A stretch of DNA of 64,000 nucleotides from a virus. Lineage: Duplodnaviria; Heunggongvirae; Uroviricota; Caudoviricetes. Under the pieces are notes generated by a model. It was not told where the DNA came from. It saw nothing but the letters and a program-made list of their open reading frames with translations, and did not search any database. Positions 21,761-40,233 of the stretch are shown here, one piece after another. The position numbers were made by a program, and so were the translations under genes. The DNA lies in the IMG/VR virus record IMGVR_UViG_3300025936_000018; one strand, written 5' to 3'. Each line of letters begins with the position of its first letter. Within the stretch, counting starts at the first letter, position 1.

Positions 21761-22131
21761 CAGCGTGACTCGCTCTCTCGATCGCGGCGCGCGTCGCCGA
21801 GGTCGCGGAGATGCTCCGCGTAGAGCGGCGACTTCGGATCGAATGGGTCGAGCAGTTCGGCCTCGCCGGGCAAGCAGTCGAAGTCGGCGCGTCCCGGGCC
21901 GGCCTCGTACTCGCGCAGCGCGGCCGCGCGTTCGCGCGCCCACTCGCCAATCTGCGTTTCGAGCAGGCCGAGAAGGTCGGCGGCTTCGGCGTTCGTCATG
22001 CGCAGCCGCAGCTTCGGGAGCTCGCCGAGCTCGAGCAACTCGAACGGGTTCTCAGCCTCGAGCAGCGCCGGCACAAAGTCCAGAACGACGTGCCGGCCTT
22101 CGTCCGAGTCGACATGGAACAACGACGTCAT
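21760..22131 (-). CDS. hypothetical protein
   Basis: Internal start MTSLFHVDSDEGR...; ATGA overlap with the C5-methyltransferase stop. Confidence 0.45.
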   Translation of the reverse strand: MTSLFHVDSDEGRHVVLDFVPALLEAENPFELLELGELPKLRLRMTNAEAADLLGLLETQIGEWARERAAALREYEAGPGRADFDCLPGEAELLDPFDPKSPLYAEHLRDLGDARRDRESESR

Positions 22132-25784: not shown

Positions 25785-26062
25785 CAGGCGGTCACCCCGA
25801 AGTCGTCCAGCGCGACGACCGTGCGCATGGACTTCTCACCGGCGAACGCGGCGTAGTCGGTCTGGAGCGCGACGAGGAACGCCACCTGCGGCGACGGCGA
25901 CTCAGTCAGGCCGAACTTGAAAACCGTGCTGGCGAGAGCGCCCTGGACGGCGTTACCGACGCCGCCGCGCGCCTCGAAGTGCTCGCGGGGCCCGGTCAGG
26001 ACCTCCGTCGTGGTGTCGAAGGTGAAGCGTCCAACTTCGACGAGCGTTTCCGTTCCTGCCAT
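25784..26062 (-). CDS. hypothetical protein
   Basis: Start MAGTETLV with SD GGGAGA/AGGAG upstream. Confidence 0.4.
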   Translation of the reverse strand: MAGTETLVEVGRFTFDTTTEVLTGPREHFEARGGVGNAVQGALASTVFKFGLTESPSPQVAFLVALQTDYAAFAGEKSMRTVVALDDFGVTA

Positions 26063-26110
26063 CTCCTGATCTCCCTTCAGGTCCGATCTCTCTTCTCCCA
26101 TTACGGTATA

Positions 26111-26138
26111 AATATATCAGTAGAGCCGGGGAGGTCAA
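26111..26138 (-). promoter_or_regulatory. sigma-70-like promoter TTGACC-N16-TATATT
   Basis: On the minus strand: TTGACC (26138-26133), 16-nt spacer, TATATT (26116-26111). Only AT-rich patch locally; about 40-nt leader to the gene starting at 26062. Confidence 0.45.
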
Positions 26139-26494
26139 GGGTAGAACCGCTCGAGCAGATACTCAAGATCGAGCTCTCGTGCGAAGCGCTTGCACCGCTC
26201 CGGCACGACATCGAGCGCGATCCGCTCGGCGGCCAGCGTGTGTCGGTCGTGCGCGTGCTTGCAGATGGTCATGCCGTTCGCGGGATCCCAGAGCCGCCCG
26301 GCGTGGCCACGTTTCCGGAGCTGCTGCTGCGTGAGCACATGGTGCGCTTGCAGCGGGCCCGCGCAGTCCGCTTGATCGGCGTGCACGAGGCAGCGACCGT
26401 CGAGCGCGAGCACAGCGACCTTGAAGTCGAGCCGCTCGGCGCTCGATGCGTCATCGCTGGCCCGGCTCGGGCGCGGATCCGGAGCTCCTGCCAC
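26135..26494 (-). CDS. HNH-like endonuclease (short)
   Basis: CLVHADQADCAGPLQAHHVL...NGMTICKHAHDRH; GTG start 5 nt after the RuvC stop. Confidence 0.5.
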   Translation of the reverse strand: MAGAPDPRPSRASDDASSAERLDFKVAVLALDGRCLVHADQADCAGPLQAHHVLTQQQLRKRGHAGRLWDPANGMTICKHAHDRHTLAAERIALDVVPERCKRFARELDLEYLLERFYP

Positions 26495-26498
26495 CGAG

Positions 26499-27110
26499 TC
26501 AGTTTGCCGCTTCCGGTTTTTCCACCTCGGACGAGGTCGAAGAACCAGAAGTCGCCGCCGCGCGAGCGTTGAGCCTGCGGCCGCAGAACGCGATGCCGAA
26601 CGCGTCGAGCTGGTCGGGGGTCCAGTCGGTCGAGTCGACCTCGAGCAGCGTCTCCAGGAGCTCGCGGCATGCGGCGTTCGCGACGTCCTTCTTCGCATTG
26701 CCGTTGCCGGCACCCTTCGCGGTCCTGCCGATTCCCGACATGAAGGTCACGTCGCGCTTCCACTCGCCGGCGAGCATGAGGTTCACGATGTCATCGTCCG
26801 ACTGGCCGGCGAGCGCGGCCATGATCGCGCCGGTGAACGCGCCCACGATGAAGTCGCTGTGACGCGATGCGCCAAAGCCGCGCTCGACGAACCACACGTT
26901 CGGCTCCGCGGCGAAGCGATGAGGGCTAGCCTCGGCGAGCAATGCTCGGGCAGAGCGGATCGCCGCCGGGACCTTCACGAGGTACATGAGCGAGTCGCCA
27001 GTCTTGCTGTCCGGCCGAAAGCGTGCCTGCACGAGGATCGGCGTTCCGCCGTCGAACGGGACCGCGCAGATCGTCGCCTTGAACGAGTCGACGTCGACGC
27101 CGAGGATCAC
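26499..27110 (-). CDS. RuvC-like Holliday junction resolvase
   Basis: VILGVDVDSFKATICAV (catalytic Asp), NVWFVERGFG, DAFGIAF; GTG start with GTGA overlap. Confidence 0.7.
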   Translation of the reverse strand: MILGVDVDSFKATICAVPFDGGTPILVQARFRPDSKTGDSLMYLVKVPAAIRSARALLAEASPHRFAAEPNVWFVERGFGASRHSDFIVGAFTGAIMAALAGQSDDDIVNLMLAGEWKRDVTFMSGIGRTAKGAGNGNAKKDVANAACRELLETLLEVDSTDWTPDQLDAFGIAFCGRRLNARAAATSGSSTSSEVEKPEAAN

Positions 27111-27484
27111 GCCGCGCGGCGCCGCGTCTCGAAGATGCCGGCAAGGTCGGGCTCGAGCTCCATGATCCGTCGCGCGTACCACGCCTTGTAGTTCTGATTC
27201 AGCTTGTAGTCGTGGTCGTGGTCGGTCTGGAGCATCCAGTCCCACCGCATGCGGTTCCAGAGCAGCTCGATACCGATCCGGTCGACGCCGGCCGCGCGCG
27301 CCTGCCGCGCGTAGCGGACGAGCGCCTCGTAGACGTGCGGATTGACGAGATGGAACTCTCGAGCTCGGCTCTGCCAGACGGAGCTGATCTCGCGTGTTTG
27401 CTCATCGGCACGGAACGCGACGATCTCGCCTTCGGGGGTGAGAAACGAGATCGTCGGTTCCATCACTTCGCCGAGGCTCTCCAC
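27107..27484 (-). CDS. hypothetical protein
   Basis: 125 aa; VNPHVYEALVRYARQARAAGVDRIGIELLWNRMRWDW. Confidence 0.45.
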   Translation of the reverse strand: MESLGEVMEPTISFLTPEGEIVAFRADEQTREISSVWQSRAREFHLVNPHVYEALVRYARQARAAGVDRIGIELLWNRMRWDWMLQTDHDHDYKLNQNYKAWYARRIMELEPDLAGIFETRRRAA

Positions 27485-27945
27485 GGCTTTTCGACCGTGC
27501 GCTCGGCGAGCTCCGCGGCGGCCTTGTAGTCCTCGTTCGCGCCGGCCAGCTGGCGGAGCACGCTGCGGTTCACCTTGAACGTCTGCTCGATCTGGATGAC
27601 GCCGCGCGTCTCTGCCTCGGGGTTGTCGTAGATCCGATCCTCCGGGCAGCCGGCCTCGCGCAGAGCCTCGGCGAGATCGTGCGGGTCGTACTCGATCGTC
27701 GGGCCGCCGGAGAGCACGACGTCGCCGGCAGACGCGTGGAACGTCTTCGTGCCCTGCACGCGCGACTGCTCGAGCATGAACGCGGTGACCGCCGCCTTGA
27801 CCTCGCGGAGTTGCTGCTCGCGCTCGCGGATGGCCTCGAGGACCTGATGCGCGTTGTCGGGCGTCGCTGGCAGGACCTCGCCGGTCATGACGTCGAGCAG
27901 CACTTCCGGGATGGCGACCTCTGTGGAGACGGTGCCGTCCGTCAT
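27463..27945 (-). CDS. hypothetical protein
   Basis: 160-aa ORF. Confidence 0.45.
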   Translation of the reverse strand: MTDGTVSTEVAIPEVLLDVMTGEVLPATPDNAHQVLEAIREREQQLREVKAAVTAFMLEQSRVQGTKTFHASAGDVVLSGGPTIEYDPHDLAEALREAGCPEDRIYDNPEAETRGVIQIEQTFKVNRSVLRQLAGANEDYKAAAELAERTVEKPWRASAK

Positions 27946-28421
27946 AGCCCCAACTCCGCGACGGTGTTGCGGAGGATCTCGGCGAGTTGCTCGCCGATCC
28001 CGAATCGCTCGAAGTTGAACTCGAGTCCGGACTCGAACGTCGCGACCTTCTCGGGGTCGTCGGTGCGTTGCTTGCCGCGCTCGCTCGCTGCGCGCCAGTC
28101 GCAGAGCATCTCCATGACGGCCATGAGGCTCATGCCGTTGACGCCGTTCGGGAAGTGCTGAGCGTGGTGGTCGTTCTCCGCGAAGTGGTGATCGAGCGCG
28201 GCGCCGAGCTCGTCTGTCGCTGCCTTGTACTCCGGACTTCCGTAGACGAGCTCGGCGAGTTTCGGCGTGGCGATGTCGAATGCCTCGACCTCGGGCGAGA
28301 CGAGTTTGCTCGCGTCGTGCACGCTCGCGCGTTCCTCGAGATTCGCGATCGCCGCGCGCATGAAGAACCGCACGCGTTCGATGTGCTCGAGCGTCTCCGG
28401 CCGAGAGTCGTAGTCGCTCAT
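27942..28421 (-). CDS. His-rich metal-binding (HD-like) protein
   Basis: HDASKL ... LDHHFAENDHHAQHF. Confidence 0.4.
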   Translation of the reverse strand: MSDYDSRPETLEHIERVRFFMRAAIANLEERASVHDASKLVSPEVEAFDIATPKLAELVYGSPEYKAATDELGAALDHHFAENDHHAQHFPNGVNGMSLMAVMEMLCDWRAASERGKQRTDDPEKVATFESGLEFNFERFGIGEQLAEILRNTVAELGL

Positions 28422-28717
28422 GCCTCCTTGTCCGCCTTGATCGTGATCCGCGCCTTCGGGTCGGTCTCGAACGAGACGCTGCGGCTGGGAGTCACCGTCT
28501 TGGAGATGCGGAACTTCCCGATGCGGCCGACCTCGCCCTCCTGGAGGTCGAACTCGCCGATCAGCGCCTTCGCGCGTTCGTCGGCTTCCTTGAACTGCCG
28601 GCGGAGCTCGCGCATCGAGTTCTTCCGCTTCTCGCGGGTCTCGAGCGCGTCCTCGAGCGCGTCGGACTCGAGTATCCGCTCGTCGGTCGCCAACTGAGGC
28701 ACCGCTGCCAATGGCAT
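28418..28717 (-). CDS. hypothetical protein
   Basis: 99-aa charged ORF. Confidence 0.4.
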   Translation of the reverse strand: MPLAAVPQLATDERILESDALEDALETREKRKNSMRELRRQFKEADERAKALIGEFDLQEGEVGRIGKFRISKTVTPSRSVSFETDPKARITIKADKEA

Positions 28718-28734
28718 TGCTCTGCTCCTCTCGG

Positions 28735-29568
28735 TTACGCCGTCTGGCTCTCGACGGCCATCTTGAACTGCTCGAACACGCCGGCTGTGACCATGTAGAA
28801 GCCGTCGGACAGCGTTGCGTCCTTCACGACCGTCCGTGCCGACTCGATCACTTTCTTCTCGCCGGAGGCCTTCCTGACCGGCTCTGACGCGTCCTCGAGC
28901 GCGCGTAGCGCCTCGGGCAGCCTCGCCGCGAGTTGCTCCACGATCTCGCCGGCGTCGCCCTCGCCAGCGTCCAGGGCCGCGCTGACGAGGTCGAGCGTCT
29001 CGCGGACGACCGAGAGGTTCCGCGCCGCGTCGATCGTCTCACCGGGCCCGAGCTCGCCGCCGCCGGCCGCGCCGGCGCTGCTCGAGCTCGGCTGTCGCGG
29101 CGGCCGCGCCGCCAGCTGCTCCGCCTCGCGCAGCGCCTCGCGCAGCTGCTCCTTCGACCAGCCGGAGCGGACCGCGACCTCGAGCCACTCGCTCTGAGCG
29201 GCAGGCTCGAGCGCCGCGACCGTCTCGTGATGCGAGAACGAGAGCTCGGCGCGTCGGCGCTCCGGAGCGACGCGCTCGCAGACCGAGACGATGATCATCA
29301 GCCGGCCGATCGAGAGACCCGTCGCATCGACGGCCTGCGCGTACTTCTCGCCGTGCCGCGCCTCCGAGAAGCGGATCAAGTCGCCCGTCCACCAGCTGCC
29401 GGCGTCGCGCATCCCGCGGATCCGATCGAGAACCTCGGCAACGCGTTCGACTGTCATCTCCGGGTCGGTCACGCTCAGACTGTTTGGCGTCAGAGCGATT
29501 CCGTCAGGCGCGCGCCACGGCAGCAAATCTAACGCCGCGGCGTTAGATTCGGTCTCGGTCTCAGTCAT
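28735..29568 (-). CDS. hypothetical protein
   Basis: 277 aa; SD GAGGAGG 7 nt upstream of the ATG. Confidence 0.45.
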   Translation of the reverse strand: MTETETESNAAALDLLPWRAPDGIALTPNSLSVTDPEMTVERVAEVLDRIRGMRDAGSWWTGDLIRFSEARHGEKYAQAVDATGLSIGRLMIIVSVCERVAPERRRAELSFSHHETVAALEPAAQSEWLEVAVRSGWSKEQLREALREAEQLAARPPRQPSSSSAGAAGGGELGPGETIDAARNLSVVRETLDLVSAALDAGEGDAGEIVEQLAARLPEALRALEDASEPVRKASGEKKVIESARTVVKDATLSDGFYMVTAGVFEQFKMAVESQTA

Positions 29569-29610
29569 TCGGGTGTTCCTCCTCGGGATGAAGTTGCCGG
29601 ATCGTCGTGC

Positions 29611-30636
29611 TCACGCCGCGACCATGCTTGCCGGGAAGTCGCGGACGCGGAGGTCGGGTGGCCATTCGTCCCAGTCGCCGCCCTTCGAGTCGCGCAGCGA
29701 GAGCGGGAATGGCCCGAGTTCGTGATCGCTAGTCGGACGCGAGCCGAGCTGCTTGACGAACACGGCCGTGACGGGCTCTATCTGTCCGCGCGGCACGGGC
29801 TCGTTGCAGCATTCGCCGTCGCGGTTGCCGCAGCAGACCGGCTCGTACGGGTCGCAGCGGCGGATGATCTCACGTGCCCACTCGATCCGCATCGGTCGAG
29901 CTCCGGGCCCGGACTCGCCGCCGACGATGATCCAGTCGATGCCGGTCAGGTCGAGCGGCCGCTTGGACTTGACGAGCGCGTTCCATGCGCCGACGCCTTC
30001 GATCTTCACCGTCGCTGCCGGCTCGAGGAACGCGCCTGTCGGATAGAGCGACTCGAGCAGCGGTTCGGCGCTGATGAAGCGCAGTGCCGCGGGGATCTCG
30101 CGGAGCACGTCCGCGCGCCATGTGTAGCGAGCGTTCTCGATCGAGACGCCAAGCCAGACGTTCGGCAGCGGCCCGTGGACGGCGAGCGTCTCGCTCGTGT
30201 CCTCGCCGGTCGTCTCGAAGGTCACGCGCTGCGCGACGCCTTCGACCTTCGCCCAGAAGAACGGATTCGTGAGCACTTCGCGCATCCCCTCGGGGCGCTT
30301 CGTCAGCACTTGGAAAACGTGCCTGTGCGCGAGCGCCATGCGGCCGAAGACCTCGGCGATGTATGCCACGGGGACGTCATCGTGGAAGAGGTCGGCGAGC
30401 GAGCAGACGAACACGCGTCGCGGCTTCGTCCAGTGGAGCGGCTGCTCGAGTCGGTCGTGGTGCAGCATGACGCCGGTGGTCTCCTCGTTCCCAACCCGGG
30501 CGAAGGTGCGGCCGTTCATGCGGAACGGCGGCGTGCGCTCGATGTAGCAGTGCGCACAGCCGGGCGAGACGCGCGTGCACCCGGTCACGGGATTCCACGT
30601 GGAATCGGTCCACTCGATCTTGCTCTGCTCAGCCAC
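29611..30636 (-). CDS. DUF5131 (phage Gp37/Gp68 family) Cys-cluster protein
   Basis: N-terminus IEWTDSTWNPVTGCTRVSPGCAHCYIERT is the family signature; GTG start overlaps the ATPase stop (TAGTG). Confidence 0.8.
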   Translation of the reverse strand: MAEQSKIEWTDSTWNPVTGCTRVSPGCAHCYIERTPPFRMNGRTFARVGNEETTGVMLHHDRLEQPLHWTKPRRVFVCSLADLFHDDVPVAYIAEVFGRMALAHRHVFQVLTKRPEGMREVLTNPFFWAKVEGVAQRVTFETTGEDTSETLAVHGPLPNVWLGVSIENARYTWRADVLREIPAALRFISAEPLLESLYPTGAFLEPAATVKIEGVGAWNALVKSKRPLDLTGIDWIIVGGESGPGARPMRIEWAREIIRRCDPYEPVCCGNRDGECCNEPVPRGQIEPVTAVFVKQLGSRPTSDHELGPFPLSLRDSKGGDWDEWPPDLRVRDFPASMVAA

Positions 30637-32486
30637 TATGCGACGGCGCCTTCACGGACCGCGTCGACGAACTCGGGAGTCAGCTGCCGGCGGCCCTTCT
30701 CGACAAGGCCGAGTTTGCGCAGGCTCGAGAGGATGACGGCCATCGTGGAAGCTGTCGGCGAGTAGCCAGTGATCTCGCAGAGCCGATCCTGCGTCGGCTC
30801 TTCCGGGTAGAGATCGAGAAGGGTGAGGATCACTTCGCGCTCGCCCTTGCCGACGCGCGGGTGTTGCAGCCATTGCTCGAGCAGCGCGCGACCCGTTGGC
30901 CGTTCGATCGGGCCGCCGATGAGGTCGAGTCCCTCCTGCGTGATGCGGACAGGCTGGTTGCCGGGATGGACGTAGCCGCTCTTGCGGAGGTTCGAGAGGA
31001 TGACGGCGACGGTCGACGCCTTCGCGGAGTAGCCGGCGAGGAACGCGAGCTCGTTGCTGGTGCGACCGTTGGGGTAGCCGGCGAGGATGCCGAGGATCGT
31101 GCGCTCGCCTTTGCCGAACTTGACGTCGCCGTTCGTCGCGTCAACGCGCTCCGCGCGCCGCGAGTCGCGAGCGCCATCGAACGTGAACGTCTCTCGCCCC
31201 ACAGCAGCTAGCGCCGGCGGTGCCTCGGCGGCCGCGCCGTTCCCCTTCCATGTGTCGCCGGCGGCGTCGGTCGCATGCGCTGGCGGCGCCGGAAGGGACT
31301 CGAGCTCGCTGTCGATGCGCTCTCGAGCGCGTGAGAGCGTCTCCTGCACGCTCTCGAGATGCGATGCAACGCTCTCGTAGTCGCCGCGGATGGCGGCTTT
31401 CAACGCGTCGGGGAACACCTGCACGATCTCGGGCTCGCGCGCCTCGAGCTCCGCGATCCGCGACTGGAGCTCGGCGACGAGAGTCGAGTCGCCATCGGCG
31501 GCCGGCTTCTCGGCGAGCTCTCGCTCGAGCGTGGCGATCCGCTTGCGCAGCTCCTTCGGATCGTTCTCCTTCGCGCGCTCGACCGTCGCCTTCATCTGCT
31601 CGCCGAGCGCGTCGAGGTCGAGCTCCTTGCGCACGGTGGGCTCGACGCGTGTCTCGCCCGGCGTCGGCGTCTTGTACGAGTCGAACGTCTTGATCCGACG
31701 CAGCGCGACCTTCTCGAGTATCCCGCGCAGCGGCGACCAAATCCACGCCGTGCCAGTCGGCAGCGAGTCGAGCGTGGAGATCACGCCGACGCGGTCGTCC
31801 TCCTGCTTCTCGCGGATCCAGTCCTTCACGGCGTCGCGCGCGCGCGGTGACAGCATCCGCATCACGAGCAGCGTCTCGATGAGGTCCAGGATCGCCTTGT
31901 TGAGCGCCTGCGTCCGCTGCGTCGTGAGAACGACGCCGAGACCACGAGAACGGCCGAGGCCTACGACGTCCTCCATAGCGCCCATCAGCCGTGCCGAGTC
32001 GCCCTTGAATCCGCCGCGCGGCGTCTGCGGCGCGTAGAAGTGCGCCTCGTCCATGACGAGCAGCAGCGTCGTGCGCGAGCGCGCCTTGCGGTCGTAGAGC
32101 CGCTCGAGGAAGTCAGCGGAGAACCGAATCGCAGCGGACTTCGAGAAGTCGCTCAGGTCGAGCACGAACGAGTGGCCGGAGTCGACGACAAGGTCGGCGA
32201 TCAGCGCGCCGGCTTGCGGCTCAAGCGGCACGTCTCCGTGCGGACCGCCGAGGACGTAGATCGGCAGCCCGGGCCCGTTGCCGGCCGCGTTGGAGCGGAG
32301 GCCGTGATAGACGCCGGTCCGGTCGAAGATCACCGATTGGACGCCGAGCGCGAACGCTTCCTCGACGATCACGGCGGAGCCGGATGACTTGCCGGCGCCG
32401 CGCGTCGCGACGATCGCTGTCGCCTCGGTGACAAGCTCGAGCGGGAGCGTGAACCCGCGCGCGATCTTCAGGCCAGCAGCAGCCAC
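30636..32486 (-). CDS. P-loop ATPase (HerA/FtsK-like) with C-terminal tandem winged-helix domains
   Basis: Walker A ATRGAGKS; Walker B LLLVMDEAHF; coiled-coil linker; two wHTH repeats (ILGILAGYPNGRTSNELAFLAGYSAKASTVAVILSNLRKSGYV / ILTLLDLYPEEPTQDRLCEITGYSPTASTMAVILSSLRKLGLV). Confidence 0.65.
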   Translation of the reverse strand: MAAAGLKIARGFTLPLELVTEATAIVATRGAGKSSGSAVIVEEAFALGVQSVIFDRTGVYHGLRSNAAGNGPGLPIYVLGGPHGDVPLEPQAGALIADLVVDSGHSFVLDLSDFSKSAAIRFSADFLERLYDRKARSRTTLLLVMDEAHFYAPQTPRGGFKGDSARLMGAMEDVVGLGRSRGLGVVLTTQRTQALNKAILDLIETLLVMRMLSPRARDAVKDWIREKQEDDRVGVISTLDSLPTGTAWIWSPLRGILEKVALRRIKTFDSYKTPTPGETRVEPTVRKELDLDALGEQMKATVERAKENDPKELRKRIATLERELAEKPAADGDSTLVAELQSRIAELEAREPEIVQVFPDALKAAIRGDYESVASHLESVQETLSRARERIDSELESLPAPPAHATDAAGDTWKGNGAAAEAPPALAAVGRETFTFDGARDSRRAERVDATNGDVKFGKGERTILGILAGYPNGRTSNELAFLAGYSAKASTVAVILSNLRKSGYVHPGNQPVRITQEGLDLIGGPIERPTGRALLEQWLQHPRVGKGEREVILTLLDLYPEEPTQDRLCEITGYSPTASTMAVILSSLRKLGLVEKGRRQLTPEFVDAVREGAVA

Positions 32487-32764
32487 TACGCCGACTCGAC
32501 CACGGTCCACTCGTCCGAGCCGTGTTCGCCCTGGAAGTCGTCGACGGGCAGCGCCTCGACGGTGACACGGAATGCACGGAACCAGTCGCGACCGATGCAG
32601 TCGAACTCCAGCCGGCCGTCGCGGTTCTGCCACGTGTTCGTCGGCGTCTCACCCTCGGCGAGCGGACGCGGGTGGATCCGGACTTCGCTCTGAGTCGGAC
32701 ACATGTCCGTCACCTTGAGCGCGTCGCGAACCGTGCGTACGACATCGTCTGCGTGAACGCCCAC
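32486..32764 (-). CDS. hypothetical protein (93 aa)
   Basis: GTG start preceded by GTAGTATCGTCGTACC (leaderless-promoter-like motif); coupled to the ATPase (TAGTG). Confidence 0.35.
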   Translation of the reverse strand: MGVHADDVVRTVRDALKVTDMCPTQSEVRIHPRPLAEGETPTNTWQNRDGRLEFDCIGRDWFRAFRVTVEALPVDDFQGEHGSDEWTVVESA

Positions 32765-32798
32765 TAGGTACGACGATACTACAGCGACCGGTCGGGCG

Positions 32799-33137
32799 CT
32801 ATAAACCGAGCCGGCGCCGAAGAACGCGGTCGATGACCGCTCGAGCGGAGCGCGGCTCTTCTTTCGTACCGGCCGGCAGCCGCCGCTTCTCGCTCTCGAT
32901 CTTGTCGCGGAGCTCGAGCGGGATCCGGCGGAGCTGCGTGACGCCACCCTTGCTGGTGCGCGGCTCGCTGCCGACGCGGCCGGTGGGCTCGTATGGAATG
33001 TCCCACTCCGCGGCGAGCTCTCCCACGATGACGTCGTTGATCGACATCTCTCGCTCGGCAGCGACTCGAATGGCCGCCTGCTTGACGTCATCGGCGAGGA
33101 CGACGGGGAGGACGCATTCGTCGGCGACTGCTGCCAT
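32799..33137 (-). CDS. ribbon-helix-helix (FitA/VapB/Arc-like) DNA-binding protein
   Basis: VVLADDVKQAAIRVAAEREMSINDVIVGELAAEW; start ATG preceded by TATAGT-N7 (leaderless arrangement). Confidence 0.5.
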   Translation of the reverse strand: MAAVADECVLPVVLADDVKQAAIRVAAEREMSINDVIVGELAAEWDIPYEPTGRVGSEPRTSKGGVTQLRRIPLELRDKIESEKRRLPAGTKEEPRSARAVIDRVLRRRLGL

Positions 33138-33166
33138 TGCCATAACTATACCGCAGCTTCGGCGGA

Positions 33167-33964
33167 CTAGGTCATGCAGTAGCCAGATTCGCAGCCGTCG
33201 TCCTCGAAGAGCACCTGCTGCTCGGTGTCCACGATCAACGGCAGCTTCATCCCGAACCGCGTCATGAAGAACTCGCCGCGGCCGAGACGCTGGCCGCGCT
33301 CGTGCAGCTTCTCCTCGAGCGCGCACGCCTTCGCGAATAGATCAGGTCGCGTGCGCGCGAGTTTCCGCCACTCCTCGAGCGAGTGGAATGGGCAGTAGAA
33401 GCATGACGACCGGCCCGGCTGCGGCAACCCTTCGTCGGCGATGACGTTCAAGCAGTCCTGCCGGTCGAGGTTGAGGTCGAGCAGCGGGTACTCGCGCAGC
33501 TGGTACGGCGATCGCGGATCGTCGGCGGTCTTAGCTCTCTGCCACTCGTCCGTGCTGATCCCGAGGCCAATGATCGCGCGTCTCTCCTTCGTTGCTCCAC
33601 GCCGGCGCACCTCCTTCTGGACGACGCGGATCTTGAACTCGGCCGTGCAGGTGCGATTCCCGGGCGCCCCGTTCTCGCCCATCCGGACGGGGATCGGGAT
33701 GCTCGTCTCGGACTTCTCGATGCGCTCCATGAGCGTCTGCGTCGACCCGTCGCGCAGCCGCTTGCGCAGCTCGAGGAGCTCGATGCCCTTCTCGCGTGCG
33801 TACGGCACCGCGACCTGTTCGACGTAGCGGAGTGTGTCAGGGTGCTCGCTGTCCTCGCCGACGTTCGCGAAGAGGAAGAGCGGGAAGTCAATCTCGCCGC
33901 GAGCAGCAAGGACGAGGGCGGCGGTCGACTGGACGCCGCCGCCGTAGGAGAACGCTCGGATCAC
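33167..33964 (-). CDS. PAPS-reductase-like PP-loop ATP pyrophosphatase
   Basis: PP-loop FSYGGGVQSTAAL (SGGxDS-type); C-terminal Cys pairs (CFYCPFH). Confidence 0.75.
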   Translation of the reverse strand: MIRAFSYGGGVQSTAALVLAARGEIDFPLFLFANVGEDSEHPDTLRYVEQVAVPYAREKGIELLELRKRLRDGSTQTLMERIEKSETSIPIPVRMGENGAPGNRTCTAEFKIRVVQKEVRRRGATKERRAIIGLGISTDEWQRAKTADDPRSPYQLREYPLLDLNLDRQDCLNVIADEGLPQPGRSSCFYCPFHSLEEWRKLARTRPDLFAKACALEEKLHERGQRLGRGEFFMTRFGMKLPLIVDTEQQVLFEDDGCESGYCMT

Positions 33965-33973
33965 ACGGTCACC

Positions 33974-34546
33974 TTATGCCGGGACGGTTGCCTTGACCGC
34001 GTCCGGGACGGTTGTCGTGACCGCGCCATCGAGAACCTCTGCCGGCGACTCTGAGCGCGGCGATCCGGCCTTGATCCATGCCTGACGAATCCGCTCGTAC
34101 TCCTCCATCGTGTACGCGTCCGGGCCCGGGTTCTCGTACTGCGGGAAGTCACGCATCTTCACCGGCGGCCGCGTCTCGACAGGACCGAGCGCCTTCGTGT
34201 TCGCCGCCTGACGAGCTGCCATCGTCGTGTCGCTGCGCCACCGCCAGACGTGCACCCACTCCGGGATGCCGCGCTCGTCAGGTGGCGGAGCGACGTCACG
34301 CTCGAGCGCCTGCCGCTGCGCGATGTGCGCGTCGTTGACCGACCGGTACGCGAGCCGGATGCGCGCGATCGGCGGGAAGCGCTCTTCGCGCTGGATCAGA
34401 TGGCCGACGGCCTCGTCGAGGACCGCGGGGTCGTAGAGCAGCGCGATCTCCTTGAGCAGAGTCTCGGCTTGATCCTCGTCCAGCGTCATCGCCGGGAACG
34501 CCGACTTCAACCGGCCGAGGATTCTGGCTGCGTCATCCAGGTGCAA
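33974..34546 (-). CDS. hypothetical protein
   Basis: 190-aa ORF. Confidence 0.45.
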   Translation of the reverse strand: MHLDDAARILGRLKSAFPAMTLDEDQAETLLKEIALLYDPAVLDEAVGHLIQREERFPPIARIRLAYRSVNDAHIAQRQALERDVAPPPDERGIPEWVHVWRWRSDTTMAARQAANTKALGPVETRPPVKMRDFPQYENPGPDAYTMEEYERIRQAWIKAGSPRSESPAEVLDGAVTTTVPDAVKATVPA

Positions 34547-35384
34547 GTTCTCTCCTTTCGCTCGCTTCTCGTTCGGCTTTGAGCCTGTCCGCGACGTCGC
34601 TGAACTCGCGCGAGCTCACGTCACGCCGGCCGAACTTCTCGCCGCGAACCCTGAAGTTGCGGAGCGGCTGCGCCTCCGACACGAACCGATCGAGGCCGCG
34701 CTTGAGGAAGTCCACGATCGTCCAGCGGTAGTCCCAGCGGTACTCGTCGCCAGCGAGCACGGTCGCGTAATTCTCGACGGCCGCGACCACCGCCTCAACC
34801 GGGTAGACGCGCAGTGCTCGCTCGACGGCCGCGCGCGTTTTCGCATCGGCGAGATACGACTCGCGATGTTCGATGAGAGGCGGCGCGTGCTCCGACCACT
34901 TCGCCGTGACCAACTGCACATTCTGCGCTCGAGCATTCGTATTAGGGCTTACCTCTTGATCAGTAGGAGGAGGGATCCGCTGATTCCGAGTTTCCTGATC
35001 CGCAATATCTGCGTTTCCATCCCGCAAGTCTTGCGGCGGTTCGATCTCGACCCCGGGCTCGTGGACGACGTAGATGTTCGGCTTGCCGAGTCCGCGCCGG
35101 CGCGTCTCCACAAGGCCGATAGTCGAGAGCTCGCGGACGTAGCCGCGCGCGGTGTTCTCGGAGATCGCGAGGTCGCGACAAAGCGTCGTCAGTGCCGACT
35201 CGACAGCATCGCTCTTCGTGCTCCACGCGAGATGCTTGAGGTAGCCGTACGTCATCTTCGCGCCGAGCGAGATCCGCTCGTCGAGCACGACGGCGTTCGG
35301 AATCATCGTGAATCCGGCTTGCGAGATCGGGTTCGAGTGGACGACTGCGGGTCCACGTCCGCCGGCTTCTATACGCTTTTCCAC
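34533..35384 (-). CDS. HTH replication-initiator/DnaD-like protein
   Basis: N-terminal wHTH (GYVRELSTIGLVETRRRGLGKPNIYV); C-terminal DnaD-like helical region; GTG start with SD GGAG 7 nt upstream. Confidence 0.45.
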   Translation of the reverse strand: MEKRIEAGGRGPAVVHSNPISQAGFTMIPNAVVLDERISLGAKMTYGYLKHLAWSTKSDAVESALTTLCRDLAISENTARGYVRELSTIGLVETRRRGLGKPNIYVVHEPGVEIEPPQDLRDGNADIADQETRNQRIPPPTDQEVSPNTNARAQNVQLVTAKWSEHAPPLIEHRESYLADAKTRAAVERALRVYPVEAVVAAVENYATVLAGDEYRWDYRWTIVDFLKRGLDRFVSEAQPLRNFRVRGEKFGRRDVSSREFSDVADRLKAEREASERRELAPG

Positions 35385-35492
35385 AGGCCGCTCCTACGGC
35401 TTGAGACGCCGGTCACCGCGAAGTCGAGGACGCGGGGCCGGCGTCGTTCTTTGTGTTGCGCGGGACGCCGACTCTACTACGGTCCGGCCGGA

Positions 35493-35774
35493 TCACAAAA
35501 TCGCCGCGTCGATGATCTCGGTCAGCGCGTCGCGGAGTTGCCTCGCCTGCTCGTAAGACGCTGCGAGCATGAGCCGCGCTTCGGCCTTCGTCGCGGGGAT
35601 CTCGCAGCGGAGCACGCCGAGCTCGAGCGCAGCGTCCTCGAGCAGAAGCGACGTCTCGATCTCGATCAGGACGGCCGGGCCGATCTGTCCGCCGTCGAGC
35701 GTGACGAGGTCGGTGACGACGTCGATCGACGCAGGACCGTCCTGCCACTTCTCCTGGAGCGCGATCTTCGTCAC
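35493..35774 (-). CDS. hypothetical protein
   Basis: GTG start 35774 (GTGA overlap); tail of a long artefactual Arg-rich ORF in the track. Confidence 0.35.
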   Translation of the reverse strand: MTKIALQEKWQDGPASIDVVTDLVTLDGGQIGPAVLIEIETSLLLEDAALELGVLRCEIPATKAEARLMLAASYEQARQLRDALTEIIDAAIL

Positions 35775-36112
35775 AGCCGGCCGCCGTCCCAGAGCGGGAT
35801 CGGCGTCTTCACCTCGATCGGCGTGACGCCGTGCTGGTGCGCGAGAAACGCGGTGATCTTCTCCCACGCCTTCGTCTCGTGCCGGTAGCGAACTGCGCTC
35901 GTCACGCCCATGCCGACGCCGACGTACTGGTCTGAGAGCTCGAGCACGGTAGCGTTCGCGAGCGGCCCGGAGTACTGCGTCACGCACACCTTGACGGTTC
36001 CGCCAGCGAGAAGCGCGGACGCGTTGAGAGCGTCGAGCTCGAGCGCCGGGCAGTGCGAGTCCGGTTTGCCGGCTCCGACCTGTGGTCCGAGGAGTACGAC
36101 GCGATCGGCCAT
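35771..36112 (-). CDS. hypothetical protein
   Basis: 113 aa; LLGPQVGAGKP Gly-rich. Confidence 0.45.
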   Translation of the reverse strand: MADRVVLLGPQVGAGKPDSHCPALELDALNASALLAGGTVKVCVTQYSGPLANATVLELSDQYVGVGMGVTSAVRYRHETKAWEKITAFLAHQHGVTPIEVKTPIPLWDGGRL

Positions 36113-37602
36113 CAGAACGGGATGTCGTCGAGCTCGGATGGCGGGGCGGCAGGTGGAGCAGCGGGTGGAGCAGCGGCGGGCTCATCCGTGTATTCGCCCT
36201 CCACAGGCGTCCATTCGGCGTCCTCCGCGTCGGAAGCGTCCGGTGCTGCCTCCGACTCAGCCGGCGGTTCTTCCACAGCAGAAGGCTGCTCAGCGTCGCC
36301 GGCGCTCTCGACGGTCGAGCTCGAGTCGAGCGGCGGCCGACCGGCTTCGGCTTCGGCACTGGTAAGCGCCCAGTCGGGCCCGTCGATTGCGAGACCGTCG
36401 AACGCGGCCGCGAAGGCCTTCTGGACGACCTCGCGCGCGTCCGGCCGCAGCTGGCACTCGCCTTCGCCCTCGAGCGCATTGAGCACGCGCAGGAGACGCT
36501 GCCAGAGATCGGCCTTCCGTTCGTCCGTGATCTCCGGATCGGAGACGACCGCGCCGATCGTCTCGAGCGCGTAACCCTTCACCGCGAGCTCTCCCAGCCA
36601 TTCGCTTGCAGCTGGAGCTCCAACCGTCTCCGCAAACCGAGCGCCGAACTCCTTCCAGCTGGCCGGCGGCTGCCACTTCCCCGTCTGCCGATCGGAGCCG
36701 TACATCTTGCGCTGATCGGTTGCGTCGAAGTCGTCCCAGTCCTGGACCTCCTCCGACGTGTACGGCATCGCGGCGCCGATGAGGTCCGGACCTAAGCGCC
36801 GAGCGAGCCGGCCGACGCACCGTGCCCAGAGCATGTCTGCTCGGTAGTTCTTCCAGTTGTCCTTCTCGACGAGCCGCTTGCCCTTCGTGACGATCTGCTC
36901 GGCCTCTTCGTACGTCCACTCGACCTCGGCGATCTCCTTCGTGTCGCGGCGCTGCGCCTTGATCCACGCGCGATCGCGCGTCGAGTCGGACTCGAGGATG
37001 ATGATGCCGCCCTCGCGCATCCGCGCGAGGAGAAGGTTCGCCGACAGTGACGGCTTGCCGTCGACGACGTAGATGTCGCGGAGCGACTGCATCGGGCCGA
37101 GCCCCATCTCGCGGCCGGTCAAGATCGCCGCGAGCACGTCATCCGGCTTGTTGCGGTACGCCATCGGGACCATCTGCGTCGACGCGATCGCGCCGGCCAT
37201 CTCGCGCATCGCGACGAACTCGGCCGTGGTCGGAAGCAGTGCCGGAGCCTGCACAACGGCCTCTTCGCGGAGCGCGAGCGCCCGACTCTCGGCGGCAGCG
37301 ATGTCCTCGGCTGTCGGCTCCGGCTCTTGCTCCGGCTCGGGCTCGGGCTCGGCCGGCGTGGCCGCAGCATCGCCGGAGCCGCTCTCTTCCGCGGCCTCTG
37401 CCGCCGGCGCGGCCGGCTGCTCTTCCGGCTGTGGCTCCGACGCCGCGGCCGGCGCACCTTCTTTCGCTCGAGCGGATTCGACGAGCCTGACGAGCAGCTC
37501 CTTCTTCGTTCCAGTCGGAGCGTCGATCCCGGCCTTACTGAGCTCGGCACGGAGCTCCGCGACGGTCATCTCCTCGAGCGGCTTCTGTTCGATCGTGCTC
37601 AT
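36112..37602 (-). CDS. recT: RecT-family single-strand annealing protein with N-terminal SAP domain and SSB-like C-terminal DDIPF tail
   Basis: SAP MTVAELRAELSKAGIDAPTGTKKELLVRLVE; RecT core QMVPMAYRNKPDDVLAAILTGREMGLGPMQSLRDIYVVDGKPSLSANLLLARMREGG; acidic tail ending ELDDIPF; SD AAGGAGG. Confidence 0.8.
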   Translation of the reverse strand: MSTIEQKPLEEMTVAELRAELSKAGIDAPTGTKKELLVRLVESARAKEGAPAAASEPQPEEQPAAPAAEAAEESGSGDAAATPAEPEPEPEQEPEPTAEDIAAAESRALALREEAVVQAPALLPTTAEFVAMREMAGAIASTQMVPMAYRNKPDDVLAAILTGREMGLGPMQSLRDIYVVDGKPSLSANLLLARMREGGIIILESDSTRDRAWIKAQRRDTKEIAEVEWTYEEAEQIVTKGKRLVEKDNWKNYRADMLWARCVGRLARRLGPDLIGAAMPYTSEEVQDWDDFDATDQRKMYGSDRQTGKWQPPASWKEFGARFAETVGAPAASEWLGELAVKGYALETIGAVVSDPEITDERKADLWQRLLRVLNALEGEGECQLRPDAREVVQKAFAAAFDGLAIDGPDWALTSAEAEAGRPPLDSSSTVESAGDAEQPSAVEEPPAESEAAPDASDAEDAEWTPVEGEYTDEPAAAPPAAPPAAPPSELDDIPF

Positions 37603-37976
37603 TCCTCTGCTGCCTCCTTCGCCTGCGCGTGTGCTTTAGCAAGTTGCCGGGTGATCGGCGCGAGACTGCGGAACGCGCTCGTCGCTGCCTCGATGAACGA
37701 GATACTTATCGTGTTGAGCCACTTGATCGTCGGCGCCCACTTCTCGGCGATGAACGCGAGCGTGACCACGCGCGCGAGATCCTCTTCGGCACGGCGCAGC
37801 TGCCGCTCGTGGTGAGCGCCGTACCGCATCGCGCGCCGGCGGACGCGCCAGTAGCGCGCGAGCGCGGCGTACTCGTAGCGCGTCATCGACCGCTTCTCCA
37901 TCCGGGCACGGATCAGGTTCCAGACCGTTGCGGTCAGCGGAGACGTCTTCGATCTCACAGGTGCGCCCGGCGTCAT
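37599..37976 (-). CDS. hypothetical protein
   Basis: Internal start MTPGAPVRSK...; ATGA overlaps. Confidence 0.4.
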   Translation of the reverse strand: MTPGAPVRSKTSPLTATVWNLIRARMEKRSMTRYEYAALARYWRVRRRAMRYGAHHERQLRRAEEDLARVVTLAFIAEKWAPTIKWLNTISISFIEAATSAFRSLAPITRQLAKAHAQAKEAAEE

Positions 37977-38338
37977 TGCGGCGTGTAGATGTGTAGACGA
38001 AACGGCTCGCCGCAGCCGAGGCACGCGCAGAGGTAGTCGGTGAATGGCTGCTTGTATGAGATCCCGACCCACTCCCATTCCGAGACGACGATCTTCGGAA
38101 GGTCGCGCCGGATGAACGGCCGGCACTCGCGGCCGCAGTTCGGGCACGCGACGCGGATCAGGTGGCGCGTGTAGTCCTCGAGCCGCTCGGAGTACGACTC
38201 GTCAGCGTCGAAGCTGACGGACGGCAGCCGATGCGCGAGCGCGCGCTCGTCGTCGGTCGCGCGCGGACACTCGCGTTGGCGTGGCTCCTCTTCGACAAAC
38301 ATCGCGCCGGCGCCGTCGCCGAGGGTCATCCTGCTCAT
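37973..38338 (-). CDS. Cys-rich hypothetical protein
   Basis: CPNCGREC...CACLGCGEP. Confidence 0.4.
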   Translation of the reverse strand: MSRMTLGDGAGAMFVEEEPRQRECPRATDDERALAHRLPSVSFDADESYSERLEDYTRHLIRVACPNCGRECRPFIRRDLPKIVVSEWEWVGISYKQPFTDYLCACLGCGEPFRLHIYTPQ

Positions 38339-38721
38339 GCCGCTGCTGCTTCCCTCGGGCAATCGCACGTGGCGCCGGCGTGATCTTCGATCTCGTGCAC
38401 GCGGAGCCAGAGCCGCGCGTAGAGGCTTTCCGCCGGCGGATCGCCGCCATCAGCCATCGCTTCGTAGACGGGATCTCCGGGCTTCGGCTCGGCGAGCGGG
38501 CCCGATGGCGCGTCGATCTCTCGAGCGAGGATCCGCGTGCGCACGTCGACGAACTCTTCCGCGTGGACATCGCGGCCGTGATCGGCGATCAGCATCAGCT
38601 TCGCGCGGCCGCGCGTCTCGGCGAGGTAGATACCGCACGGCACGGTGTACTCGCCGGGATCGGGCGGCTCATAGCTTCGCCCGACGATGCGGCCCTCGAG
38701 TTTGCACCAGTACGCGTTCAC
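38335..38721 (-). CDS. hypothetical protein
   Basis: GTG start VNAYWC (GTGA overlap). Confidence 0.4.
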   Translation of the reverse strand: MNAYWCKLEGRIVGRSYEPPDPGEYTVPCGIYLAETRGRAKLMLIADHGRDVHAEEFVDVRTRILAREIDAPSGPLAEPKPGDPVYEAMADGGDPPAESLYARLWLRVHEIEDHAGATCDCPREAAAA

Positions 38722-39122: not shown

Positions 39123-39574
39123 CTCGCCGCCGCCTTCCTGTCCAAGTAGCGGCGCTGAGCGGCCGTGCGGCACTTGCGGCACGCGCGACCGCCAGTCGGC
39201 CGCCGGTACGTGTTCTTCGGCGTGAACTCGTGCCCACGCCTGCAATGCGTCTGCGCTTCTCCCCGCGCCTTATTGAGAGCGGGCCCGGCTCCGCGCCGTA
39301 GATTCTCGGCACGGGTGACGGCTTCGAGATGCTCGGGATTTACGCAATGCCTGACCCGGCAGAGATGGTCGGGCTCAAGTCCGCTCGGGATCGGGCCGAT
39401 GAAATACCGATAGGAGATGCGATGCGCTCCGTAGTTGCGCCGGCCGACACTGAATGAGCCGTATCCGTTGCTGCTCCGACCACCCGTCCAGAACCAGCAA
39501 CCGTCCTCCTGGACTTCGATTCGCGCCATGAAGCGACGCAAACCTTGCGCGTCGATCAGCGGGACCGCGCTCAC
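39119..39574 (-). CDS. HNH homing endonuclease (HNH_3/AP2-like)
   Basis: CWFWTGGRSSNGYGSF...AHRISYRYFIGPIPSGLEPDHLCRVRHCVNPEHLEAVTRAENL. Confidence 0.8.
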   Translation of the reverse strand: MSAVPLIDAQGLRRFMARIEVQEDGCWFWTGGRSSNGYGSFSVGRRNYGAHRISYRYFIGPIPSGLEPDHLCRVRHCVNPEHLEAVTRAENLRRGAGPALNKARGEAQTHCRRGHEFTPKNTYRRPTGGRACRKCRTAAQRRYLDRKAAAS

Positions 39575-40233
39575 GCTGCATCCATCCGATCAGCGAGCGC
39601 CTCAGCTTCACGCACACGCCTGATTGCTTCATCTATCCACTGCTCGTCGCACTCGATTAGCACCGCGCGTCGACCGCGCATGATCGCTGCTACCCCGGTC
39701 GAGCCAATCCCGGCGCATGGATCAAGTACGACATCGCCGATGCGACTCGATGACTCGATGAGCTCAGAGAGCAGCGCGAGCGGCTTCTCGGATGGGTGGC
39801 GAACCTTGCGACCAGTGGGTCGGTTCGCGCGAAGGACGGTGCCCTTGCGGATGCGGGCGGGAATGGCGTCGCTGCCGGCTTGACCGCCGTGTCGGTGCTT
39901 GGAGACGAGGAACGAGATCGACTCGTGCGCGGGGCCGAATGGCGCGGAGAGGTCGCCGCCGCTCATCATCAGCTTGTCCCAGACGAGCGCGACGGGCGCT
40001 GTCGTTTTCAGTCCTTCGACTACGTCGGTCGGGCCGAACACGTACAGGTGGCGGTTCTGGCCGACGACGCGCACGCAGTCGCGGAGGATCTCACGGATGC
40101 CCTCGCGATCAGCGTGGCCGTCGCCGACCAGCATCTCGAAACGTGCGGCTCGCTGGTTCGAGCGCCATTCGACGCCGTAGGGCGGATCCACGATGACGAG
40201 ATCGACCGACTCCGTTTCCATCTCAGCGAGCAC
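39571..40233 (-). CDS. DNA methyltransferase (PF01555-like N6A/N4C), N-terminus separated from body by a G9 tract and in-frame stop
   Basis: DPPY (motif IV), HPSEKP, DPCAGIGSTGVAA (motif I). Conserved N-terminal block GTIFQADARDVLAEMETESVDLVIVDPPY continues upstream of the first usable start and is cut by TGA 40291-40293. With G8 the frame would fuse to GTG 40294. Confidence 0.8.
   Translation of the reverse strand: MLAEMETESVDLVIVDPPYGVEWRSNQRAARFEMLVGDGHADREGIREILRDCVRVVGQNRHLYVFGPTDVVEGLKTTAPVALVWDKLMMSGGDLSAPFGPAHESISFLVSKHRHGGQAGSDAIPARIRKGTVLRANRPTGRKVRHPSEKPLALLSELIESSSRIGDVVLDPCAGIGSTGVAAIMRGRRAVLIECDEQWIDEAIRRVREAEALADRMDAA

Follow-up and report, generated by a model that had tools for sequence, protein, structure and literature searches.

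A PP-loop enzyme, a HerA-type ATPase and a DUF5131 protein side by side in an uncultivated tailed phage: probably a mosaic early region rather than one enzyme system

The question raised by this locus is whether three predicted enzymes encoded side by side in an uncultivated phage, namely a PP-loop ATP pyrophosphatase, a HerA/FtsK-like P-loop ATPase and a DUF5131 (Gp37/Gp68) protein, work together as one DNA-modification system. The genes lie in a block at positions 29611-33964 of a stretch of 64,000 nucleotides (the window; IMG/VR record IMGVR_UViG_3300025936_000018), which is a tailed-phage genome. A sequence-only reading of the window had taken the block for a possible DNA-modification or anti-restriction operon that follows the logic of the Dnd and Ssp systems with different components. 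In this study, we find all five open reading frames (ORFs) of the block where that reading had placed them, on the minus strand and with coding-type G+C at third codon positions (GC3 0.81-0.89). However, the three enzymes prove to be separately inherited, and a three-enzyme module is not supported. The genes of the block are members of known families in an ordinary mosaic early region, and the block is probably a mosaic stretch of the early arm (replication, recombination, methylation) of an uncultivated high-GC tailed phage, not one enzyme system.

Co-occurrence across related phages had been set beforehand as a check on the joint system, and its outcome goes against it. Loci were scanned reciprocally at a distance of 10 kb, with hidden Markov models (HMMs) for the PP-loop and ATPase families and with phmmer for DUF5131. 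The best 80 loci were taken per scan (for the ATPase, the best 80 of at least 470 IMG/VR contigs, together with 65 GTDB genome contigs, which gives 145 ATPase loci). The PP-loop gene was present at none of the 145 ATPase loci, and around the 80 PP-loop loci neither the ATPase (0/80) nor DUF5131 (0/80) was found. DUF5131 lay near the ATPase in 23/145 loci; seen from the 80 DUF5131 loci, the ATPase was within reach in five and the PP-loop gene in three, in one of which (L235) it adjoins DUF5131. The gene order of the closest relative (L001/L017), whose ATPase is 90% identical over residues 5-315, runs DnaD-like, DnaC-like, further genes, ribbon-helix-helix (RHH)-like, g27463-like, ATPase, LmbU-like (42 nt downstream) and g28418-like, and neither the PP-loop gene nor DUF5131 is found within 10 kb of its ATPase. 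The DnaD-like gene is kept in L001 at 41% identity, and upstream of the ATPase L001 encodes a homolog of the 114-aa RHH-like protein of the window, with a 36%-identical stretch and the same AEEREMS(I/L)ND motif. In L002, an ORF with an HNH motif separates the LmbU-like gene from the ATPase. From the reciprocal scans, the gene contexts and the order in L001/L017 and L002, we conclude that a conserved backbone received the PP-loop gene and DUF5131 by separate insertions. This backbone would consist of the DnaD-like initiator, further genes, the RHH-like gene, a small ORF, the HerA-type ATPase with its coiled coil and two winged helix-turn-helix (wHTH) domains, and the LmbU-like gene. It would have acquired the PP-loop gene and DUF5131 as two independent accessory genes, the latter in the variable slot flanked by the ATPase and LmbU-like genes, as a facultative and not an obligate companion of the ATPase.

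The alternative, that the PP-loop enzyme, the ATPase and the Cys-cluster protein form a new Dnd/Ssp-like system for backbone or base hypermodification, draws on features that are indeed present. The three genes are co-oriented within 4.4 kb, four DNA methyltransferases are encoded elsewhere in the genome, one of them fused to a ParB-like domain as had been noticed, and the core of the PP-loop protein matches the PADLOC SspD model (E 4.4e-13; only residues 101-225, on model positions 80-206 of 277). The three DUF5131 loci with a PP-loop gene, L235 among them, point the same way. On the other side stand the zero counts of the reciprocal scans and the autonomy of the PP-loop family, which occurs in viruses with neither partner. 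The ATPase is of the HerA type and not of the SMC-like DndD type, and the RHH-like gene, with intergenic gaps of 23 nt and 31 nt, parts the PP-loop gene from the coupled trio of 93-aa ORF, ATPase and DUF5131. The profile-HMM and structure searches that the sequence-only reading had called for upheld its superfamily assignments, but among the eight genes of 28735-35384 the profile searches revealed no DndA/SspA cysteine desulfurase, no DndD/SspC and no DndE/SspB (Pfam, PHROGs, NCBIfam, PADLOC). We regard a joint system of this kind as very unlikely. What stands of the proposal is a plausible part in anti-defence or DNA modification for the PP-loop gene alone; as a new three-gene DNA-modification system it fails, and LC-MS or iodine-cleavage work aimed at such an 'operon' would be mis-designed.

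A weak, facultative association between the ATPase and DUF5131 does survive. In this phage, the translational coupling proposed for the 93-aa ORF, the ATPase and DUF5131 is borne out by two TAGTG stop/start overlaps, one at 32484-32488 (gcgTAGTGgct) from the 93-aa ORF to the ATPase and one at 30634-30638 (gcaTAGTGgct) from the ATPase to DUF5131, in which the G is shared. De novo clustering of the ATPase neighbours placed DUF5131 at the top (19 loci by BLAST clustering, 23 by phmmer), followed by a ~540-aa ParB-like family (18 loci), integrase (17), ASCH-like (14) and HNH (12) genes. Compared with the PP-loop loci as control, which were taken as comparable viral contigs, the enrichment is 23/145 against 0/80 (Fisher p=3e-5). 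Moreover, DUF5131 directly adjoins the ATPase (gap of at most 501 nt) in 9 of the 23 loci, five times upstream and four times downstream, where random placement among ~26 gene slots would give 5-10% (binomial p at most 2e-4). Among the nine adjacent lineages, identity is only 30-71% for the ATPase and 30-62% for DUF5131, and three of the nine pairs overlap or lie within 4 nt.

It is conceivable from these observations that the two genes form a DNA-tracking module, in which a wHTH-loaded HerA motor would deliver or couple DUF5131, which would modify or repair bases, with the ParB-like protein taking the place of DUF5131 in other lineages. The coupling here, the enrichment, the adjacency in both orders across divergent lineages and the DNA methyltransferases found within 5 kb of DUF5131 in ~24/80 loci are all in keeping with such a module. 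Against it, at the 10-kb distance 84% of the ATPase loci lack DUF5131 and 94% of the DUF5131 loci lack the ATPase, the closest relative (L001/L017) lacks DUF5131, and DUF5131 occurs in 165 annotated phage records while the ATPase family occurs in one. The slot next to the ATPase also takes HNH, ASCH-like, ParB-like and integrase genes, as an accessory-gene hotspot would, and no fusion protein is present among the 120 ATPase homologs listed. We thus hold the two-gene module to be a rather doubtful possibility. A broader version, in which the ATPases of this family are DNA translocases guided by sequence and offer a platform to exchangeable partners that act on DNA (DUF5131 here; ParB-like, ASCH or HNH proteins elsewhere), appears unlikely; were it true, the coupled ATPase-DUF5131 pair would modify or repair DNA as a motor-coupled device of a new kind. 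To us, the regions flanking the ATPase have the look of a general slot for accessory genes.

The mosaic reading leaves each of the three enzymes to be considered by itself. The SYGGGVQST motif reported for the PP-loop protein is present at residues 6-14 (SYGGGVQS at nt 33926-33949), with a CFYC motif at nt 33392-33403 and a C-terminal tail of the form GCxSGxC, and the proposed kinship with the DndC and SspD enzymes holds at superfamily level. The protein belongs to the phage 'PAPS-reductase-like' (phosphoadenosine phosphosulfate reductase-like) family: phrog_424, 'phosphoadenosine phosphosulfate reductase', matches residues 1-256 with E 1.9e-36, along with the partial SspD match. No PADLOC DndC model matches at E <= 0.01, and there is no NCBIfam DndC match. 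Residues S6, G8, G10, Q12, C106, D139, E140, C188, C191 and C263 are invariant among homologs from Thermus phage P23-77, a Vibrio oyster phage, a Pelagibacter phage, a Mycobacterium abscessus prophage and a Nitrosopumilaceae spindle-shaped virus, and the C-terminus of the family is conserved as GCxSGxC(M/F)T. The AlphaFold2 (AF2) model has a predicted local distance difference test score (pLDDT) of 90, and its best fold matches are TtuA, NcsA and LarE, followed by PAPS reductase, TilS and GMP synthase. The likeness to TtuA, NcsA and LarE, which are [4Fe-4S]-dependent PP-loop sulfurtransferases (E 1e-4 to 4e-4), lies in the PP-loop fold and the logic of a Cys-ligated cluster; TM-scores are only ~0.4-0.47 and identities 10-18%. 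Their substrates (tRNA U54/U34 and nicotinic acid adenine dinucleotide) are not implied for the window protein. Among solved structures, only PptA (PDB 21fy chain C, 270 aa; E 8e-7) is similar in sequence, and a literature search for it returned nothing relevant.

The family is large (at least 4254 homologs, nearly all single-domain and of ~265-280 aa) and seems to be carried as a single gene. The members closest to the window protein (53-78% identity) are all uncultivated, and those from cultured viruses are only 26-33% identical to it. Unpartnered full-length homologs occur in Thermus phage P23-77, SSIP-1, Pelagibacter HTVC034P, Vibrio oyster phages, M. abscessus prophages and Nitrosopumilaceae spindle viruses, that is, in bacterial and archaeal viruses with unrelated virion types. 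Like the stand-alone phrog_424 proteins (P23-77 ORF3, the Vibrio oyster-phage homologs and the M. abscessus 'PAPS reductase-like domain protein'; ~255-340 aa), the window protein is a single domain with SxGxGxQS, C106, S.DE..R, CxxCP and a C-terminal Cys, and members of the family lie alone among small early genes or adjoin DNA methyltransferases. Neighbours of individual homologs include PDDEXK/HNH/GemA, MT-A70 and C5 plus N6 methyltransferase genes, and in one case a bacterial chromosome next to dprA. The 80 PP-loop loci have no common ATPase partner. A C5 DNA methyltransferase gene lies directly upstream on the same strand in 12/80 loci (L243-L322), a WhiB-like gene is near in 16/80, and in the M. 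abscessus prophage a DNA methylase gene is found three genes upstream. The homolog in the bacterial setting (L014 5001-5834, a 109-kb contig of JGI 3300086455, 61% identity) comes immediately behind dprA and the gene of a ComM-like Mg-chelatase, surrounded by housekeeping genes of an apparent bacterial chromosome and with no phage genes nearby.

The name of the family invites a metabolic explanation, by which the gene would be a true PAPS/APS (adenosine phosphosulfate) reductase, CysH, carried as an auxiliary metabolic gene to boost host sulfate assimilation. This name is borne by the PHROG family and by many GenBank records, and the fold matches include PAPS reductase of yeast and a plant APS reductase. 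Yet Pfam PAPS_reduct (PF01507) reaches 14.3 bits against a cut-off of 22.5 and aligns with the PP-loop only (residues 5-62), the Fe-S sulfurtransferases TtuA, NcsA and LarE fit the fold better, and the typical neighbours are DNA methyltransferases, WhiB and nucleases, not genes of sulfur metabolism. The C-terminal motif of CysH is ECGLH, which differs from the GCxSGxC(M/F)T conserved here. A CysH role was rejected on the PAPS_reduct score, which is under the gathering cut-off, and we consider it extremely improbable. The literature also favours an anti-defence role (PMC13551039, 2026): phage PAPS reductases are described there as predicted DndC/SspD homologs in anti-defence hotspots, and earlier work (Piel et al. 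2022, Nat Microbiol) is cited in which a phage PAPS reductase, of another clade than the window protein, promotes evasion of host Dnd.

A role of the PP-loop gene alone in anti-defence or DNA modification agrees with that literature and with how often the gene adjoins DNA methyltransferases. A 4Fe-4S centre on three Cys and a Cys dyad are described for DndC (PMC10853773), and the three-Cys set and extra C-terminal Cys of the window protein resemble them; the protein differs from DndC and SspD in being autonomous across viruses. The enzyme may bind ATP at the SxGxGxQS loop, hold an Fe-S cluster on C106, C188 and C191, and adenylate a nucleic-acid or nucleotide substrate, with sulfur passed through the C-terminal Cys from host sulfur donors. 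It would act without any phage-encoded partner, and the phage may gain by being shielded from host immunity of the phosphorothioate-based or a related kind, or by interfering with it; evasion of phosphorothioate-based immunity is linked to the family in the literature (PMC13551039). The window adds a soil, high-GC clade to this stand-alone family, and the conserved Cys residues are clear targets for mutagenesis.

The second enzyme is the HerA-type ATPase, and its description as a HerA/FtsK-like ATPase with GAGKS and DEAH motifs and two C-terminal winged helices was confirmed. The 616-aa protein has Walker A GAGKS at residues 30-34, Walker B DEAH at 146-149, GRSRG at 178-182 and sensor residues Q190/R191; across 28 homologs (alignment A1), G32, K33, E147, G178, G182 and R191 are invariant and Q190 nearly so. 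Signature residues of the clade are a sensor-1 Gln where strand 4 ends and an Arg finger shortly before it (PMC10853773), and the window protein has the Walker motifs, the sensor Gln, the Arg finger and the HerA-like core fold. Its AF2 model has a mean pLDDT of 84 (core above 90), and the top Foldseek matches are HerA-NurA, Sulfolobus solfataricus HerA, the anti-phage complexes Sir2-HerA and DUF4297-HerA (E 3e-13 to 1e-9 for HerA) and STIV2 B204; matches in the viral structure library BFVD cover only the core. The two winged helices are seen in the AF2 model, and matches to HTH_Crp_2 (555-600) and MarR_2 (555-599; 22.9 bits, gathering cut-off 27) both fall under the Pfam cut-offs; relatives carry HTH_IclR, HTH_5 or TrmB matches. 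A 65-nt direct repeat (30708-30772 and 30975-31039, 75% identical, 267 nt apart) is the DNA trace of the duplication behind the two domains.

Close relatives, including P0002, P0012, P0016, P0017, P0027 and L001 6001-7797, are 80-90% identical over the N-terminal motor half only, and it looks, from these alignments, as if the coiled-coil/wHTH half had been exchanged between them as a module. A swapped DNA-binding half on a motor that is 80-90% identical is in keeping with a specificity module. An identical copy of the protein is encoded on a 96-kb metagenome contig (ena:ERZ27264490:k141_6087910). At least 470 IMG/VR contigs carry the family, which also occurs in prophage-like regions of many phyla and has no member from a cultured phage. 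It is a large, widely distributed and wholly uncharacterised phage family with an exchangeable DNA-binding half, and worth attention in itself.

The window ATPase has in common with HerA proper the RecA-like core fold, Walker A and B, GRSRG, the sensor Q, and Pfam DUF87 and HerA_C matches. It differs in that it lacks the N-terminal HAS barrel (the AF2 model begins at the ATPase core) and carries a unique C-terminal coiled coil and two wHTH domains; with the NCBIfam HerA equivalogs it reaches 27-44 bits, where the cut-offs are 800-970. It has no NurA, Sir2 or DUF4297 partner, and the neighbour clusters of the 145 ATPase loci contained no NurA-like gene. The genes around the ATPase (DnaD-like, DnaC-like, SSB, Ku and RecT) suggest that it acts in replication, recombination or DNA processing. 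The protein may be a ring-forming double-stranded DNA translocase that its exchangeable tandem wHTH tail would target to phage DNA. The sequence-only reading had named clear homology to replication or packaging proteins as what would speak against a modification module; the gene context found here leans that way but is evidence of neighbourhood, not of homology. In individual contexts, the neighbours are SSB, Ku, HNH or ParB_N genes. As a separate observation, 8 loci have the ~540-aa ParB-like protein, whose C-terminal half is rich in Cys, encoded right next to the ATPase, a frequency similar to that of DUF5131.

FtsK, through its gamma wHTH, and Streptomyces TraB are HerA/FtsK-clade pumps steered by a C-terminal winged helix. 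By analogy, the ATPase might pump the DNA of the element itself during segregation, transfer or packaging, serving prophage or plasmid maintenance or concatemer handling, and not be a replication or recombination factor. The likeness is architectural only: a ring ATPase with a C-terminal wHTH to read DNA motifs. A large terminase gene ~5-6 kb downstream of the ATPase in at least 21 other loci (L016-L160), the integrase and the adjacent ParB-like genes of the loci mentioned above, a core that resembles viral packaging NTPases such as STIV2 B204 (TMt 0.8), and a match to phrog_2666 'terminase large subunit' (E 3e-11) are compatible with such a pump. The window protein departs from FtsK and TraB in having no membrane or alpha domain and no Pfam FtsK_SpoIIIE match, two wHTH domains where they have one, and a phage early-region context, with DnaD-like, DnaC-like, SSB, Ku and RecT-like genes as the immediate neighbours here and in the closest relatives. 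The phrog_2666 match was not taken to indicate packaging, as a classical large terminase (TerL) is encoded ~17 kb away. A pump of this kind seems quite improbable to us, and a part in replication, recombination or DNA processing is preferred.

The third enzyme, the 341-aa DUF5131 protein, is a full-length member of PF07505 (E 7e-71, 238.9 bits against a cut-off of 28.9) and also matches phrog_2045 (E 4e-80). It had been described as a Cys-cluster protein, and rightly so: CX6CX2C lies at residues 20-30 (nt 30547-30579) and GGESG at 239-243, and in alignment A2 C20 is invariant while C27 and C30 are nearly so. An additional five-Cys insert at residues 261-289 (nt 29770-29856) is common to just one other copy in the alignment. 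RadicalSAM.org places DUF5131 in the radical S-adenosylmethionine (SAM) superfamily as Megacluster-5-2, and spore photoproduct lyase in sub-cluster 5-3 of the same megacluster (PMC9477430); this classification was all that a literature search for DUF5131, Gp37/Gp68 and TcmP returned. The motif of the window protein is CX6CX2C, where the cluster motif of radical SAM enzymes is of the CX3CX2C type. The superfamily placement and the frequent company of methyltransferases suggest that DUF5131 may be an Fe-S/SAM enzyme acting on DNA.

The protein has a further likeness to the DUF5131-TcmP 'mobile pair' and to PDC-M41 and PDC-M30, in which PF07505 has the N-terminal three-Cys motif and GGESG. It matches PADLOC PDC-M41B (E 4e-68) and PDC-M30B (E 1e-63), while TIGR04471 'radical SAM mobile pair protein A' gives 41.6 bits (E 1e-10), far under its cut-off of 355. 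The window copy differs in being coupled to a HerA-type ATPase and in its Cys-rich insert, and no NCBIfam match to a TcmP partner was found in the eight neighbouring proteins. The annotated phage records with DUF5131 are mostly those of Mycobacterium and Gordonia phages. DUF5131 is among the commoner unknown enzymes of actinobacteriophages, and its facultative linkage to the ATPase is a handle for finding its substrate.

Another ATPase lies next to DUF5131 in the cultured Mycobacterium phage LunaStella (gp63-gp64; L327 2623-4415), where the gene of an AAA_24 'ASCE ATPase' and the start of the DUF5131 gene share 4 nt, followed by an HNH gene and, farther on, a DNA methyltransferase gene. It was considered as an extension of the ATPase-DUF5131 pairing and rejected, as the AAA_24 protein has no relationship to the HerA-type ATPase (its hhalign probability is 18% and concerns the P-loop only). 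A second DUF5131-like protein had also been proposed at 5731-6657 of the window. The GGGCYAE motif is there, but the product belongs to the DUF7227/GP88 family (E 7e-19; motif CPSSC-x7-CYAE), with an hhalign probability to DUF5131 of 0.2%, and the proposal was rejected.

Several observations weigh against the mosaic reading of the block. The co-oriented genes are tightly spaced, with gaps of 9-42 nt or overlaps, and in this particular phage the PP-loop gene, the ATPase and DUF5131 might be co-expressed and interact opportunistically. The best-80 loci are phylogenetically non-independent, so the p-values are optimistic. The enrichment of DUF5131 around the ATPase could mean a true two-gene module, which a mosaic reading under-rates. 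The anti-Dnd result, as cited in PMC13551039, concerns a Vibrio phage protein, which may not be the 30%-identical homolog found here. Moreover, the roles given to DUF5131 and to the ATPase family are read from fold and neighbourhood.

The features of the block and the landmarks of the genome are collected in Table 1. The G+C content of the window is 66-70%, and its genes lie nearly all on the minus strand. In a megablast search of the block against 50,697 phage records, the sole match was a 57-nt fragment of DUF5131, and hence there is no annotated close relative at DNA level. The 92-aa product of an ENA gene call corresponds to the 93-aa ORF, which had no homolog in the 145 ATPase loci and no family (Pfam, PHROGs, NCBIfam, PADLOC) or PDB match. 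Likewise, the 114-aa candidate RHH protein matched nothing in Pfam (up to E 10), PHROGs, NCBIfam or the PDB. A promoter and terminator scan of 28500-35500 gave nothing above shuffles, and a repeat search of 26000-38500 detected no iterons and no candidate wHTH sites, the duplication within the wHTH gene being the only repeat found.

Table 1. Coordinates of the block, its flanking genes and genome landmarks in the window, in the direction of transcription (from high to low coordinates).
Feature	Position	Strand	Basis or remark
Major tail protein	62434-63081		
Dit	50386-51426		
Endolysin	41984-42928		
N6_N4 DNA methyltransferase	39571-40221		long early region begins here
RecT-like protein	36112-37602		
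DnaD-like replication initiation protein	34533-35384	-	phrog_270, phrog_7882, phrog_428 (replication-initiation/DnaD-like families)
190-aa protein	33974-34546	-	upstream backbone
Block under study	29611-33964	-	
PP-loop ATP pyrophosphatase, phage 'PAPS-reductase-like' family, 265 aa	33167-33964	-	phrog_424 match
114-aa protein, possibly tandem ribbon-helix-helix (candidate)	32799-33143	-	pattern suggestive; GC3 0.81
93-aa ORF	32486-32767	-	stop overlaps ATPase start; GC3 0.83
HerA-type ATPase, whole gene	30636-32486	-	
HerA/FtsK-clade P-loop ATPase core, residues 1-262 of 616	31701-32486	-	Pfam DUF87, HerA_C; PADLOC HerA models, mad8
Long helical (coiled-coil) segment, residues 291-396, and disordered linker, 401-454	31125-31616	-	AF2 secondary structure, pLDDT
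Two tandem winged-helix domains, residues 459-525 and 532-615	30642-31112	-	AF2
DUF5131 (Gp37/Gp68) protein, 341 aa, listed as a radical-SAM-superfamily subgroup	29611-30636	-	PF07505
LmbU-like DNA-binding protein, 277 aa	28735-29568	-	NF038070, E 7e-26, 91.2 bits, under the 125-bit cut-off
C5 methyltransferase	22128-23942		
N6_N4 methyltransferase	17420-19339		
ParB-N and N6_N4 methyltransferase fusion	14335-15393		
Large terminase (classical TerL)	12352-13734		~17 kb from the ATPase

Elsewhere in the window, the RecT-like annealing protein (phrog_4171, E 2e-26) has an N-terminal SAP/HeH domain and long Pro/Glu/Ala-rich low-complexity tails, which is unusual for RecT. Two of the methyltransferases have uncommon architectures: in the N6_N4 enzyme that lies between the C5 enzyme and the ParB-N fusion, Pfam positions 1-181 are spread over residues 58-406, so that it has a large insert, and in the 604-aa C5 enzyme only residues 17-138 match Pfam. 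The ParB-N/N6_N4 fusion lies just upstream of the terminase region, with 13712-14440 between it and TerL. Downstream of the terminase region, 1067-2122 encodes an SPFH/Band-7 protein (phrog_200 'lipoprotein'), and 6654-7976 a 440-aa protein with an HNH-associated repeat and an AbiEi_4 helix-turn-helix domain.

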